Positions 3,938-30,944 of a stretch of DNA of 64,000 nt are shown in pieces. Position numbers and translations under genes: made by a program. Source of the DNA: a virus; IMG/VR virus record IMGVR_UViG_3300028423_000861, positions 64,001-128,000 of that record; one strand, written 5' to 3'. The notes beneath the pieces are model-generated. The model made no database searches and was not told the origin of the DNA. It saw only the letters and a program-made list of their open reading frames with translations. Each line of letters begins with the position of its first letter. Position 1 is the first letter of the stretch.

Positions 3938-5125
3938 TTAAACCATTTTGAGAAGCTCTTGTTTCGTGAGCTTGAATCCCGAAGTTTCCCACTCCGCCCT
4001 CAGTTGTGCCAGCTTGCGGCCCATCTCAGGACCAGGCGAATGTCCAGCAGAGATAAGATCGCTTCCGCTAAGAGGAAATTCAGGAGGTGACCAGGCCTTG
4101 AGTGCAGGAATTCGGTTCCCTTGACCAACACTGTTTAGCAATGCAAAGACATTTTCTGACTTGATTTTTGGGTCGGCAAGCATACGCTTGATGTCTTCGT
4201 CAGTGAGATCTTGATCACGATTATCGATAATAAATTTGGCGCGATTAAAGACCTCGTTGGAGAATTTCCATTTATTGCGGAGAGTCTGGAGTCCAGCGGT
4301 GTTATTTAGTGCCGCAGCAAGAGCGGCTACTGGATCGTCACCAGTGACCTGCCGCACCATACCAACACGATTATTCGGCATATCAATAGCTTCTAGAACA
4401 TCTGTTTGATCCATGCGCTTGAGAACTTCTGCACGGCTGTTAGGACGGCTGAGAATCTTTTCCATTTCCATCCAAACACGTTCTCCGCTTATATTAGCAA
4501 GTCCTTGGGCATTGCGGGCAACTGCATCCATGGTTTCTTGATCCCATGAAGGACCGTTCAAACGTCCCTGGAAACGAAAGAACCGGAGAATGCGCAAGTA
4601 ATCTTCTTGCATACGTTCATCAGGATTGCCTACAAAACGTGCAACGCCGTTTTCAAGATCTTCAACACCGTCAAAGTAATCATGCAACGTGCCATCCATT
4701 TCCATGCTCATTGCATTAAAAGTCAAATCACGACGTTCAGCATCTTTGCGCCAGTCATTTGTAAACTCTACATCGGCATGACGGCCATCGGTTTCAGAAT
4801 CGATTCTCAACGTTGTAATTTCAATAGGCTCGCCATCCAATATTGCCGTGATAGTCCCATGGTCGAGACCAGTCGGCTCGTGGCGTATTCCTGCCCGATC
4901 TAATATTTCCATCATTTGTTCAGGACGAGCGTCAGTTGCCATGTCAATGTCCTTGGGATCTTTGCCAAGAACAAGATCACGCACAGCACCACCCACAATA
5001 CGAACCTCAAAGCCAGCGGCACGGGCAGCTCGATCCAACGTTCGCACTGCCGGAGTAAGAAGATGATCAAAACGATCATGTTCAAGCTTCATTGTAGCTT
5101 CATTAAGGATATTATGTAGGCGCAT
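3938..5125 (-). CDS. cca: CCA-adding tRNA nucleotidyltransferase
   Basis: VGGAVRD, DIDMAT, EITTLR, RRDLTFNA, EDYLRILRFFRF, ERVWME. Confidence 0.95.
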   Translation of the reverse strand: MRLHNILNEATMKLEHDRFDHLLTPAVRTLDRAARAAGFEVRIVGGAVRDLVLGKDPKDIDMATDARPEQMMEILDRAGIRHEPTGLDHGTITAILDGEPIEITTLRIDSETDGRHADVEFTNDWRKDAERRDLTFNAMSMEMDGTLHDYFDGVEDLENGVARFVGNPDERMQEDYLRILRFFRFQGRLNGPSWDQETMDAVARNAQGLANISGERVWMEMEKILSRPNSRAEVLKRMDQTDVLEAIDMPNNRVGMVRQVTGDDPVAALAAALNNTAGLQTLRNKWKFSNEVFNRAKFIIDNRDQDLTDEDIKRMLADPKIKSENVFALLNSVGQGNRIPALKAWSPPEFPLSGSDLISAGHSPGPEMGRKLAQLRAEWETSGFKLTKQELLKMV

Positions 5126-16524: not shown

Positions 16525-17076
16525 TAGTCTTCTATCTCCAAGTTTTCATGAAGTTTATCCATTACCTTTTGCCACCTTGTTCTTCGAGCGTGCTCGGTAA
16601 GATAGAACCGGTGACAAATTTCATAGACAACAGGGCCTTTAAAATCTTCGGGATTGTCAATATGCGCGCCAATAAAATTTTCATTACGCGGACAATATGT
16701 AGATTGGAACCATCTACAAATATAGCAGTTATCATATTCAGTTGGTTCAACAGTTGGAAAAGTTCTATTCACCAAAATCCAAACCTCGTTCTGTTTTTTC
16801 TCTGGTATCACTGGTTCCATCTAGCTTGCGCATAGTTAATATTTGCAAAGCTTCGTCTGCTTGTTCATCAGGAGTCCATTCATCACAAGCACTCATTGAA
16901 CTCCAGGGATGACAGTTGTATTTGTCCCCAGGCTCTGGTGCTTTAGGACAATCATACGTTTGAAACTTTATACAGTGACGACAGATCCGTGTCGACAAAA
17001 ACATGAGTTCATAATCGCGTTTATCATTTAGATCCATTGTATTAGTATATATGATCAATTTTGGAAGGTCAATCAT

Positions 17077-17103
17077 AAAAAAACCCTGCACGATTGGCAG
17101 GGC
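17077..17103 (-). terminator. intrinsic terminator ending the giant RNA unit
   Basis: CCCTGC-CAATCGT-GCAGGG-TTTTTT. Confidence 0.75.
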
Positions 17104-17117
17104 ATTTGTGTTGAAAA

Positions 17118-17370
17118 TTAGCAGACCATATTTCGAATTGCCCTATCCGGCCAGCACAAGTTGCTATCTTGTGCCTGGGCATGGCGGGTAACAAGTGTCT
17201 TCTGACAACCTTTATTAGCTAGATAAAAGTTATGCCTGTCAGTGCTAACCATCCGGGACAATAATAAATTTTCGACGCATTGGCCCCCTCCCGCCATGTC
17301 GTCCGACACGCTCCAAATGATCCCCAGCCCTCAGGCGGTCACCAAGTGTGGCGCTGTCTTTCCTGTGTTG
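17118..17370 (-). ncRNA. structured 3' trailer of the giant RNA precursor
   Basis: local stems CATGGCGGG/CCCGCCATG and GCACAAG/CTTGTGC; three segments complementary to 19310-19377. Confidence 0.65.
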
Positions 17371-17371
17371 G

Positions 17372-18115
17372 TTATTTTCTTCCCCGAACCCAACCATTCG
17401 GTATATCACTATCTTTCTGTATTCGTTTATTTTTAACACCATCTGTTATCCAAACAGAGCCATACGAATAATTATTTGCACCAGTCATTGCGTTCGAAAT
17501 TTTTTGCTTTGTTTCAGTAGACAATTTATTGCCTTTTCTTGATTCACTCATCTTTTGTCGGGTTGCAGTCGATTTCTTTTTACCTACCAACGCTTCTGAC
17601 AATTTCTTACGATGCTCTTGAGTAATAACCCTTGGCTTTGGCTTCACTGATTTGTTATAGTATGGAATTCCTTGGCATCTTTTTGACATATAATGTTGCT
17701 CAAATGCCGAAACACTTATCTCATTCTGACATTTTAAGCAACATATTCTGTTATGCTTTTTTCCTTTAAATCCTGATGGTCGTTGTTTAGCTTTTTTACT
17801 TATTTTATCTCGAACTTCTGTAGTAAACAAGATTCCTGTATTAATTGAATTATTGTAAAAGGTATTTCCTTCAAATATTTCTTTTTTGTGTTCAGTTAAT
17901 AACTGTCTTTCTAAATTTATTGCTTCATAAGCATTGTCAAAGACTTGAATGATCTCACGTTTCCATTTAATATCAGGATCTTTCCAGTCTTTCCAAAATT
18001 CCTCTGAGCTACTTGATGAAATATATCCATCGTCAGTAGTTCCTTTGTGATACCCTATATATCGTTTGCCTAGTGTATTAGACCATTCATACACAAAATA
18101 TTCAACACGTTTCAT
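17372..18115 (-). CDS. GIY-YIG homing endonuclease with NUMOD3-like repeats
   Basis: FVYEW..YIGYH..DDGYISSS, E..LL, FYN; ETKQKIS-type repeats. Confidence 0.85.
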   Translation of the reverse strand: MKRVEYFVYEWSNTLGKRYIGYHKGTTDDGYISSSSSEEFWKDWKDPDIKWKREIIQVFDNAYEAINLERQLLTEHKKEIFEGNTFYNNSINTGILFTTEVRDKISKKAKQRPSGFKGKKHNRICCLKCQNEISVSAFEQHYMSKRCQGIPYYNKSVKPKPRVITQEHRKKLSEALVGKKKSTATRQKMSESRKGNKLSTETKQKISNAMTGANNYSYGSVWITDGVKNKRIQKDSDIPNGWVRGRK

Positions 18116-18162
18116 AAATAAGCCTTTTAACTGTATACTTATTTATGTTAATAAGATGGAAA

Positions 18163-19040
18163 TAGTGAGATTACCTAAATTTCCGCGGTTGCCTTTGGAC
18201 CGTACCGTAAACCTTGCGAGTCTACGTTAATCCGTTATCCACTAAGCGCCTTTCAGCTGACTTAGTATCAACCAGTGCTGCCTAGTTTAAAGTGGTGGCA
18301 TTTCCACTATCGTTACACGCTACTCGTCCTTTGATCTTCCGCCTGCCTTGCGAGCAGTTCAGAGTCGCTAAACCCTTACGTCTTCTCTCCGAACAAACAC
18401 TTCCGCCTTGCGAGCTTCCATGCACGACATTCACCGTAGTGTGTCGTATTAAGCACCTTTAACGTGCAACTGAGGCAGTCTTTGCGTTTTTGCTATAATG
18501 CATCTGCAGGATTTGAACCCACACATTCAGTTCCTAAAGACTGACGCTCTACCATTGAGCTAAGTTGCTAACCTACCAAGACGTGCTGCCTCTTGTTGCT
18601 TCGCATCCTTTTGGGAAACGAAATACAACACGCCTAAATGCCTTTCTCCTTGCGGGATACTAAACGTCTTTTCAAGTATCCAGCTACCTCACTAGTCGGT
18701 AACTCTCAACTTTAAAGATAACAAGTTGCCCTCCTGCGCGAACAGTCGGACTATTTGTTTACCCGTTAACATTCTGTCTTCGCTAGATTGGAGTGCATAG
18801 CTTTGGCTCCCACCAAATTGTAACCTCGCCGGTTGGCCCTGGTTACTATCCTTTCGGGCATTTGCTCTAGCTTAGGACTTACCTCGCTCTTCACAAGGGG
18901 TGCGCTACGGCTTATAGGAATACATCCGTCTGCCACCTAGTCCGGGCTTGCGTAAATGGACCATTGCTGGCGCAAGTGCGTAGGCTTCCTTGCTTTGGCA
19001 GTGTTACCACTGTTATCCTCCTGGACGTCACGCCGCCCAT
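18163..19040 (-). ncRNA. GOLLD-like giant structured RNA
   Basis: ~880 nt without a long ORF; repeated CTCGCAAGG loops; GTGTTGTATTTCG..CCAAAAGG..GAAGCAAC, AAAGGTGCTTAA and 3' GTAATCTCA, recognised from memory of GOLLD; 5' end uncertain. Confidence 0.75.
18500..18568 (-). ncRNA. degenerate tRNA-like domain embedded in the giant RNA
   Basis: TAGCTCAATGGTAGAGC D-arm, TCAGT/ACTGA stem with 8-nt loop, GGTTCAAATCC, no CCA. Confidence 0.7.
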
Positions 19041-19375
19041 GTTCTTGTCTTAGATGATGAGTGTGCAGACATGTTGGGATTTAACCAACGAGTCGATTGC
19101 CTGGACATTTGTGTAAGCAAAGGGAAAGGAAATTGACAATCAACACCATCACCTTTGTCTGCACACACGACATCTAAGACCATTTTACAATAATCGGCTT
19201 CTATGTTTTTATATACACACCACTCGCATTTTGATATTATCTCAACGTTTTGACTGCATGGATCTTCCATCGCGGCGCAGGAAATTTCCTTTCAGGCCCG
19301 ACGCAGCGGATTGTCCCGCGATTCCATGACCAGGCAGTGTGCATGTAAAAACATAGTTGCCTATGTTGGTCTGCT

Positions 19376-19448
19376 AAATTTTTAAAGAGCGTGTTGAGCT
19401 TTGCTCAACTTGTTTTACCAATATAGTGGTTTTATTTATGTTCGTCAA
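19376..19448 (-). promoter_or_regulatory. promoter, boxB-like hairpin and boxA antitermination site
   Basis: TTGACG-17-TATATT, GTTGAGC-AAA-GCTCAAC, CGCTCTTTAAAAATTT. Confidence 0.7.
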
Positions 19449-19828
19449 CCACTTTTTTCAACTTTTTTAGTTAAGCTTGCGATTTTTGCTTTCGCCAGTC
19501 AGCTTTTCGAAAAAGAGCCCGACAAGCTCTTCATCACTCATTTCTTCAACAACATCTTCATCAAGATGGCTGAGGTCTTCAAGCATTTCGTTCAACGCTT
19601 GGAGTTCACGATCAGACATGTCATCCGGATCCAGCTTGTAAGGTTCAGCCTTTTCAAGGAGCGAACCATCATTGGCCATTTGTTCAAGCTCTGCAATGAA
19701 CTCGTCAAGTTCTTCCTGGGTGCCATCAAATTCATCAAGAGCACCCGGTGCAAACGTAATCTTTATTTTATCTTCTTTGTCATCTGTCATTGTTTAATCA
19801 ATCTATACAAAAATCTCTAAAGAGTCAA

Positions 19829-20287
19829 TTATTGTGTTTTATCCAAGACGTTTTGATTATTTTGGATATTCCATGCAGGTTGGATATAATTGATGAGGAA
19901 ATTTTCTTCAACATCAATTAAACTCATCGTCTGAGACACGGCCCCAGAAAACAAATCAATATGTCTGACCTCACTGTTACAACCATAAATCATCACTCGA
20001 TCGTTTTCAAGGGTTTCGCGCAATTTATAGGCTTTGGTAATACCTGTAACGCTGTTGCCGCGCCACCCACCACGATGTTGTTTAAACCTCTGCTCAAGTC
20101 CTTTTCCGGCCTTGCCCACATAAATTACTTCATCATGGGCTACCCAAAGATAAACCTGTGGAATCTTTTGTTTGAATTTGTCTTCTTGGATAACAAAATC
20201 AACAAGATCTCGATCATTGATAAAGATTTCACCAGCATATTCAAAATATAATTTTTTTATTATTTCAGAAGCAGATTTTTGATTCAT
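19829..20287 (-). CDS. GIY-YIG nuclease family protein
   Basis: VYLW...IYVGKA...RFKQH...EE...PAWN. Confidence 0.75.
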   Translation of the reverse strand: MNQKSASEIIKKLYFEYAGEIFINDRDLVDFVIQEDKFKQKIPQVYLWVAHDEVIYVGKAGKGLEQRFKQHRGGWRGNSVTGITKAYKLRETLENDRVMIYGCNSEVRHIDLFSGAVSQTMSLIDVEENFLINYIQPAWNIQNNQNVLDKTQ

Positions 20288-30854: not shown

Positions 30855-30944
30855 TGGCGGAGGGCCCGAGAATCGAACTCGATGCGCTTTCACGCACAAT
30901 CGGTTTAGCAAACCGTTCCAGGCACCAGCCTGATTGTACCCTCC
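30855..30944 (-). tRNA. tRNA-Ser(GCU)
   Basis: loop TTGCTAA, long V-arm. Confidence 0.88.

Follow-up and report, generated by a model that had tools for sequence, protein, structure and literature searches.

GOLLD, a giant non-coding RNA of phages, has had no known function since 2009; its structure has been solved by cryo-electron microscopy as a 14-mer nanocage (bioRxiv 10.1101/2024.12.08.627333), and how the cage is made in cells is not known. The published RNA consists of a 5' region of ~420 nt and a 3' region, and the Rfam model RF02032 covers the 3' part only. Here we describe a GOLLD gene on the minus strand, at positions 17077-19470, of a 64,000-nucleotide stretch of viral DNA (positions 64,001 to 128,000 of IMG/VR record IMGVR_UViG_3300028423_000861; hereafter, the window), which is part of a 142-kb contig estimated to be ~60% complete and deriving from a large, tRNA-rich phage. 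The gene is a bona fide GOLLD and is likely organised as an autonomous non-coding transcription unit headed by a predicted antiterminator of the type found in bacterial ribosomal RNA (rrn) operons. In the direction of transcription, the unit runs from promoter, hairpin and boxA through a leader, GOLLD with its tRNA-like insert and a homing endonuclease gene to a trailer and terminator (Table 1). All elements listed by the original prediction, a reading of the letters that preceded this analysis, were found at their places on this strand; of its interpretation, the GOLLD assignment, the hairpin-boxA head and the structured leader held, the closure of the unit by three helices and the structured trailer are not established, and the endonuclease placed in a loop did not hold. 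The head in front of GOLLD is the well-supported and apparently undescribed part; among the papers searched, none links boxA to GOLLD or to tRNA arrays of phages.

The closest described counterpart of this head is the rrn leader, where boxB, boxA and boxC stand in this order, the rRNA transcription antitermination complex (rrnTAC) comprises NusA, NusB, NusE, NusG and SuhB as well as S4, and the 16S leader and trailer form a helix (PMC10250234). Outside rrn operons, boxA recruits Nus factors in the suhB leader (PMC5725501) and, as the titles of further reports have it, occurs with CRISPR arrays. The window shares with rrn leaders a hairpin followed by boxA just past the promoter, a boxA identical to that of some proteobacterial rrn operons, a long untranslated and structured RNA downstream, and a strand right after boxA with predicted pairing to one close to the 3' end. 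It differs from them in that it is without boxC, its end helix spans 11-14 bp rather than at least 17 bp and is absent in the relatives tested, and its strongest stems are local. The phage lambda nut site has the opposite order, boxA preceding boxB, and depends on the N protein, and unlike both lambda nut and suhB, the target here is a giant phage non-coding RNA or, in other phages, a tRNA array.

That the element in the window is a boxA follows the usual description, i.e., GCUCUUUAACAA or a natural variant of it on the nascent RNA soon after a promoter: it lies ~22-33 nt downstream of the predicted transcription start, and 11 of its 12 positions equal those of the rrnB boxA in the E. coli K-12 record L014 (GCTCTTTAACAA). 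Set side by side, the E. coli rrnB sequence is TGCTCTTTAACAATTTATCAGAC and that of the window is CGCTCTTTAAAAATTTAGCAGAC. The hairpin 5' of boxA occupies the position of boxB, and the hairpin-boxA module is single-copy in the 142-kb contig. Promoter, hairpin and boxA in rrn order, as originally proposed, are present where they had been placed, and they recur in other phages.

Specifically, a promoter-hairpin-boxA head precedes the GOLLD core by ~140-220 nt in five relatives (G023, G015, G016, G012 and L117), is found as a variant in a sixth (G006), and opens an operon of tRNAs plus GOLLD in G013, MD18, MAL1, X1, XacN1 and CM1. For instance, DSS3_MAL1 has GGAACC-TCG-GGTTCC followed by A-CGCTCTTTGACAATTTGG at the head of its tRNA-GOLLD-tmRNA operon, and MD18 shows the same design. 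The boxA sequences of G023 and G016 (GAUAA) fall outside the pattern that was scanned for, and MD18 and MAL1 were found via GOLLD similarity; hence, these cases are independent of the search pattern. In eight of these loci (G023, G015, G016, G012, G013, MD18, MAL1 and L117) the hairpin stems differ in sequence and the pairing is kept. Scanning IMG/VR with the boxA 17-mer gave 114 viral matches, and the 4 kb downstream of these contained 249 tRNAs on the same strand vs. 7 on the opposite strand, with at least three tRNAs following 25 of the matches and GOLLD occurring seven times in the matched records. A hairpin abuts boxA in 47 of the 114 viral matches vs. 9.6 in shuffles, i.e., a fivefold excess. 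Further, in a sample of GOLLD loci collected independently of boxA (24 loci with enough upstream sequence), a boxA-like 12-mer stands 17-187 nt before the core in 13, the chance expectation being ~0.002 per locus. The 17-mer of the window is also found, letter for letter, in bacterial genomes, where boxC (GTGTGGG) follows in 15 of 121 matches, as is the case for the rrn leaders in Oceanospirillum, in Vibrio and in metagenome-assembled genomes of beta- and gammaproteobacteria.

Alternatively, the boxA-like 12-mer might be some other promoter-proximal element, such as the site of a phage factor, and not a Nus site. The absence of boxC fits such an explanation, as does the partial conservation of the promoter and its UP-like stretch among a few GOLLD loci too, and the connection from boxA to Nus factors is here a prediction from sequence. 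However, the element is identical to bacterial rrn boxA, and its variants track host groups, with GUUCUUUAA or GTTCTTTAA(A/C)AA at the operon heads of Xanthomonas and Stenotrophomonas phages and GCUCUUUGACAA in roseobacter phages; it is also always on the transcribed strand, 3' of the -10 element and ahead of untranslated RNA genes. A non-Nus element is, in our view, improbable, and we favor an rrn-type antiterminator. Several observations nonetheless weigh against the latter. boxC (UGUGUGGG, ~18-19 nt past boxA in rrn) is absent and there is no GUGUGGG in the leader; boxA is not universal, given that phiCbK, Phosso and 11 of the 24 sampled loci are without one within 600 nt; the ends of the transcript, its extension over the endonuclease and any processing are predictions; and neither NusB nor RNase III is encoded on the (~60% complete) contig, so that host factors must be assumed.

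The promoter itself deserves a separate remark. The 26 nt that span its UP-like element and -35 box (19444-19469) are nearly the same at the promoter of G012, a 330-kb phage (L158:7054-7079), and similar stretches exist in G013 and Sinorhizobium phage Phosso, L173:3530-3556 being among the positions of this observation. The UP-like stretch occurs once in the 142-kb contig, and its motif was found in 0 of 20 other GOLLD loci, which rules it out as a general GOLLD feature. Hairpin-boxA modules also occur in two groups of IMG/VR contigs (L035, L075, L076, L081, L103 and L107; L038, L046, L055, L065 and L073) at loci without a tRNA within 4 kb 3' of the module, e.g., GGGGA-GGGCAAA-TCCCC followed by ACGCTCTTTGACAATTTAATCAACTACGG and ACATTG-AAAT-TAATGT followed by ACGCTCTTTAAAAATTTGTGTAGAATGTC.

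Table 1. Features of the GOLLD unit, in window coordinates; paired strands are separated by a slash.
Feature	Position	Strand	Details
Promoter with UP-like part	19420..19470	-	A-rich UP-like stretch AAAAAAGTTGAAAAAAGT upstream of promoter
Sigma-70-type promoter TTGACG-17-TATATT	19448-19420	-	Consensus scan, 10/12 positions
Hairpin at boxB position, GUUGAGC-AAA-GCUCAAC	19393..19409	-	7-bp stem, ends 2 nt 5' of boxA
boxA, AC-GCUCUUUAAAAA-UU	19377..19392; core GCTCTTTAAAAA 19390-19379	-	rrn-like sequence
Small hairpin ACAUAG-GCAA-CUAUGU	19351..19366	-	3' strand shared with start of domain A stem
Leader domain A	19201..19356	-	Bipartite long stem 19356-19334/19224-19201 around ~110 nt
Leader domain B	19047..19181	-	~24-bp stem 19181-19157/19070-19047, ends 6 nt before GOLLD core
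GOLLD 5' domain, outside Rfam model	18637..19045	-	Alignable to nine further GOLLD loci, beginning at ...AUGGGCGG...
GOLLD 3' part	18162..18636	-	RF02032, full model 1-416, 181.9 bits, E 1.6e-49
tRNA-like insert in GOLLD linker	18498..18569	-	Rfam tRNA 50.1 bits; 8-nt anticodon loop CUUUAGGA
10-bp hairpin CAUAAAUAAG/CUUAUUUAUG	18113..18147	-	Covers endonuclease start codon; perfect 10-mer, span 34
Free-standing homing endonuclease, 247 aa	17372..18115	-	GIY-YIG-like N-terminus plus NUMOD3
Trailer	17104..17371	-	268 nt, GC 45-50%
Intrinsic terminator GCCCUGC-CAAUCGU-GCAGGGU plus U7	17077..17103 (17103-17083 plus T-run)	-	Consensus scan
Leader-trailer helix 1	19367-19377/17118-17128	-	11/11 bp, 5' arm UUAGCAGACCA; three more A-U pairs possible at 19379-19381
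Leader-trailer helix 2	19324-19336/17172-17184	-	12/13 bp
Leader-trailer helix 3	19310-19318/17254-17262	-	9/9 bp

The identity of the RNA is clear from the covariance model, whose match extends over all of model positions 1-416 and scores 181.9 bits vs. the RF02032 gathering score of 150 bits. Upstream of this match, the conserved 5' domain opens at ...AUGGGCGG..., around position 19045 (19043 according to nhmmer), and GOLLD proper hence covers ~19045-18162, or ~884 nt. The first ~115 nt of the 5' domain (19051-18937) share 68-74% blastn identity with relatives, and G015 aligns at 65% over 19037-18320. Since RF02032 models the 3' part only, an RNA longer than the Rfam model is to be expected; the suggestion of a much larger RNA than the model thus turns out to be trivial, with the canonical 5' domain at 19045-18637 accounting for the excess. 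The locus has what other GOLLD loci have, namely a full match to the 3' model, a separate and homologous 5' domain of ~400 nt, a tRNA-like element in the linker, and a phage genome rich in tRNA genes (43 genes for tRNAs or tRNA-like elements plus a two-piece tmRNA on the contig, all on the minus strand). It is unlike them in forming a unit of its own, at least 2 kb from the nearest tRNA, in having a leader of 331 nt vs. ~130-220 nt in relatives, and in carrying an endonuclease gene and a trailer between the GOLLD 3' hairpin and the terminator. It is also unlike a GOLLD with a standard tRNA in the linker in that the window element has an 8-nt anticodon loop. ARAGORN gives the anticodon of this element as 'ttag', readable as UUA or as a quadruplet UUAG. 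Two other GOLLD-embedded tRNAs, in G012 (L158:7729-7802) and at L117:5757-5829, have non-standard loops too ('tatg' and 'at'), and in other relatives the corresponding tRNA is a normal one for Arg, Ser or Leu.

The leader, i.e., the 331 nt from boxA to the GOLLD 5' core, has a minimum free energy (MFE) of -123.7 kcal/mol and a fold z of -7.45, in line with the structured leader of ~340 nt that had been proposed, and three perfect 10-11-bp complements lie within its local stems. Domain A belongs to a stem that recurs in phage leaders, UGUUUU(C/U)ACAU...GAAAACAG, in which a small internal loop separates the lower stem (UUCUGUUUUCA/UGAAAACAGAA) from an upper stem that covaries, with a tRNA usually 1-6 nt 3' of the element. 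The small hairpin preceding domain A is likewise conserved, L097 and L053 having ACAGAA-GAAA-UUCUGU in its place with compensatory changes; because its 3' strand is the start of the long stem of domain A, the two pairings are alternatives. Domain B holds the position of the self-closed leader domain of relatives, ACUGU.../...ACAGU-AAG-AUGGGCGG. As domain A and the small hairpin are homologous to elements of tRNA-operon leaders, the leader reads as a mosaic of ordinary modules of non-coding RNA operon leaders and not as part of an outer RNA. No Rfam family matched 19201-19356 of the window.

Several further observations concern these leader modules. In related phages, the bipartite stem appears as UUCUGUUUUCA, a 2-nt loop and a covarying 7-9-bp upper stem / GCUGAAAACAGAA (L097:95, L097:477, L053:606, L053:806, L121, L349:2470, L050, L037:9243, L037:10218 and L145:2135); the tRNA that follows is often initiator-like Met, and boxA and the small alternative hairpin sometimes stand directly upstream. 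An 11-bp perfect complement, GAAAGGAAAUU/AAUUUCCUUUC (19293-19283/19134-19124), joins the interiors of domains A and B, perhaps as a pseudoknot or kissing contact; it overlaps the palindrome GGAAAUUUCC and is absent from the MFE fold. In G013 (L154, ~4750-4790), a segment 3' of GOLLD, ..AAACGCTTCCGACAATAGCTTGGGAT.., resembles part of the leader domain of G016 and G023, and a leader module may thus be reused or duplicated after GOLLD. An open reading frame (ORF) of 80 aa at 19270-19028 was rejected as a real gene, since it sits in the RNA stems of the leader and has no family hit.

At the other end of the unit, the terminator is where it had been predicted, and the next gene's own promoter (17072-17044) follows directly. 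The trailer is not significantly structured when folded alone (z -0.74), which weakens the structured trailer of the original prediction. The three leader-trailer helices proposed there are present and nested, but only helix 1 is thermodynamically favoured: its ensemble probability is 0.93 and that of helices 2 and 3 is 0, whether the transcript is folded at its full 2330 nt or at 1540 nt with the endonuclease removed, because the 5' arms of helices 2 and 3 lie inside domain A. As RNAduplex runs on the 200 x 300-nt flanks returned very long spurious duplexes and were uninformative, we replaced them with exact-stem, chaining, cofold and partition-function tests. A perfect 11-bp match between leader and trailer has P 0.012-0.041. 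For the helices taken as a co-linear chain, P is 0.008-0.016 when compared with shuffles and 0.02 when natural sequence of the same window serves as the reference. Cofolding leader and trailer gains -18.5 kcal/mol vs. -6.6 +/- 2.7 kcal/mol with shuffled trailers, with 0 of 100 of the latter as good.

These numbers may be read in two ways. One is that the unit gives rise to a 2.3-kb precursor resembling that of an rRNA operon, in which the three nested helices would form an RNase III stem or a chaperone stem held by Nus factors, looping out GOLLD and the endonuclease. The helices do exist in nested order with a chain P of 0.008-0.02, helix 1 forms at high ensemble probability, begins immediately 3' of boxA and stops 14 nt short of the terminator, a geometry fitting the rrn model with the leader strand anchored near the RNA exit channel (PMC10250234), and the GC content of the trailer is RNA-like, unlike that of the endonuclease. 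Conversely, helices 2 and 3 are outcompeted by the strong and conserved domain A, the 9 bp of helix 3 are at chance level by themselves, and the trailer has no significant fold of its own. Helix 1, at 11-14 bp, is short for RNase III and below the >17-bp leader-trailer helix needed for 16S (PMC10250234). The relatives tested do not share the arrangement either: in the boxA-led G023, G015 and G016 the leader closes on itself and pairing with a trailer brings no gain (P 0.28-0.78), and Phosso has only a 6-bp match between leader and 3' end, with its terminator directly after the GOLLD 3' hairpin. We therefore regard such a precursor as unlikely.

The second way is that the complementarity has no function at the RNA level, being due to chance or a relic at the DNA level, namely an imperfect inverted repeat of 16 nt dating from the rearrangement by which the endonuclease, trailer and terminator arrived. 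By chance, the whole 2.3-kb transcript is expected to contain 0.53 perfect complements of at least 11 bp, and an AT-rich 12-mer complement between the leader and the endonuclease ORF is evidently one; many windows were scanned as well, so that a P of ~0.01 is not rare. The helix-1 arm is unique to this phage and replaces what is, in relatives, an A-rich and apparently unpaired spacer, and the relatives are without any trailer. On the other hand, the arms lie at the extreme ends, beside boxA and the terminator, which shrinks the search space to ~1e-3, the three co-linear matches have P ~0.01-0.02, and a relic would have to be reconciled with the lack of a target-site duplication and of a transposase. 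The same lack led us to reject a transposon-like element with terminal inverted repeats. To us, pairing without function comes close to an even chance. Modelling suggests that helix 1 can probably form; it is peculiar to this phage and of unproven function. The rRNA-like closure of the ends depends on one plausible, lineage-specific helix and is likewise unproven, and any processing would more likely occur at the long local stems of the leader than at helix 1.

Searches turned up no close homologue of this leader or trailer. Blastn against 50,697 phage records matched the GOLLD core only, and no sequence similar to the trailer was present in any fetched locus or phage record. For the flanking ORF107 and ORF108, IMG/VR yielded distant relatives or none at all, and GOLLD accompanied none of them; the 12 loci related to ORF107 in JGI metagenomes (45-60% identity) were without GOLLD too; exact-pattern scans (boxA plus helix arm; the 5' core of the window) returned chance matches or nothing.

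T4-like phages carry free-standing GIY-YIG homing endonucleases (Seg proteins), with an I-TevI-type NUMOD3 linker. The gene 3' of GOLLD resembles these in size (~245 aa), in its GIY-YIG-like N-terminus and NUMOD3, in its AT-rich intergenic insertion and in a start codon buried in a hairpin. It differs in that its catalytic domain is under the Pfam cut-off and that it is inserted 3' of a non-coding RNA gene, a site neither between protein genes nor within an intron. The protein matches PHROG 314 (homing endonuclease) at 1.8e-17 and NUMOD3 at 3e-12 (46.7 bits); PF01541 (GIY-YIG) gives 17.1 bits vs. a cut-off of 22.6 (E 0.0069, profile positions 2-74 of 78), and no match was found among PDB sequences. 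That is, the gene predicted as a GIY-YIG gene is a homing endonuclease, with the GIY-YIG assignment itself sub-threshold in Pfam. The endonuclease has a GC content of 28-36% vs. 44-55% in both flanks, and no gene is present at its position in any relative examined; by composition and placement, it is an AT-rich cassette inserted 3' of the GOLLD 3'-terminal hairpin. Sixteen loci of endonuclease relatives (25-61% identity) share none of the trailer DNA. One gene upstream of the GOLLD unit there is another small endonuclease-like gene (19829-20287, minus strand), which matches PHROG 1111 at 3.8e-12 and gives weak GIY-YIG matches in Pfam.

A further possibility is a larger outer RNA, intron-like or split, of which leader and trailer would each form one half, with GOLLD and the endonuclease in one of its loops, given that homing endonucleases often reside in loops of group I introns and that the ends can pair. 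However, apart from GOLLD and tRNA, no Rfam family was found in 16900-19600 even at E values up to 5, and this includes intron families, which excluded a group I intron around the endonuclease. Further, the leader modules are homologous to leaders of tRNA operons without a 3' partner, the trailer is unstructured, and the endonuclease follows the conserved fold of GOLLD, after the 3'-terminal hairpin, instead of lying within it; the endonuclease is hence not in a loop, contrary to the original prediction. An outer RNA is, accordingly, very improbable.

Returning to an autonomous unit with an rrn-type antiterminator, we envision the following sequence of events. Transcription would start at the strong sigma-70-type promoter, and within ~35 nt the nascent RNA would present the hairpin and then boxA, in the order of bacterial rrn. 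Host NusB-NusE, with NusA, NusG and possibly SuhB, would bind boxA and turn RNA polymerase into a termination-resistant, fast and RNA-chaperoning complex, which would carry it across ~1.25 kb of untranslated, highly structured RNA otherwise exposed to Rho. The leader is made of modules (small hairpin, long bipartite stem A and stem B) that also occur in the leaders of phage tRNA operons, and its local stems of 20-24 bp are the likelier candidates for folding guides or for sites at which processing would release mature GOLLD. The endonuclease cassette would ride on the same antiterminated transcript with its start codon buried in a hairpin, and transcription would stop at the intrinsic terminator; the segment directly 3' of boxA may pair, over 11-14 bp, with the segment just before the terminator.

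It is tempting to extend this scheme, and we do so only tentatively, considering the extension possible but doubtful: GOLLD genes and phage tRNA arrays might generally be Nus/boxA units, in which an rrnTAC-like complex shields the transcript from Rho and chaperones its folding, perhaps including the assembly of the 14-mer cage, and here the strand anchored at boxA might additionally capture a strand of the trailer that lies 2.26 kb downstream, so that GOLLD and the endonuclease would be looped out the way 16S is in rRNA operons. An rrn-type antiterminator before GOLLD and phage tRNA arrays would offer concrete and testable handles, in that GOLLD output should, if the scheme is true, hinge on Rho as well as on NusB, NusE and SuhB of the host, and in that the leader stems become candidate processing sites. 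The polymerase complex that chaperones rRNA folding may also chaperone cage assembly, and the end-to-end helix, if real, would extend the leader-trailer principle of rRNA to a phage RNA, which is unproven. At a more practical level, the association of hairpin and boxA suggests a simple signature for finding non-coding operons of phages.

Finally, a few observations were made on other tRNAs of the window and its relatives. An Rfam tRNA-Sec match lies at 30859-30944 of the window (minus strand; 53.4 bits vs. a gathering score of 47). ARAGORN reports tRNAs with a CUA anticodon ('Pyl') in G013, G015 and G016 (L154, L153 and L155, respectively), and XacN1 is annotated with a tRNA-Sup. Suppressor-type tRNAs appear to be common in this phage group and may point to stop-codon recoding.

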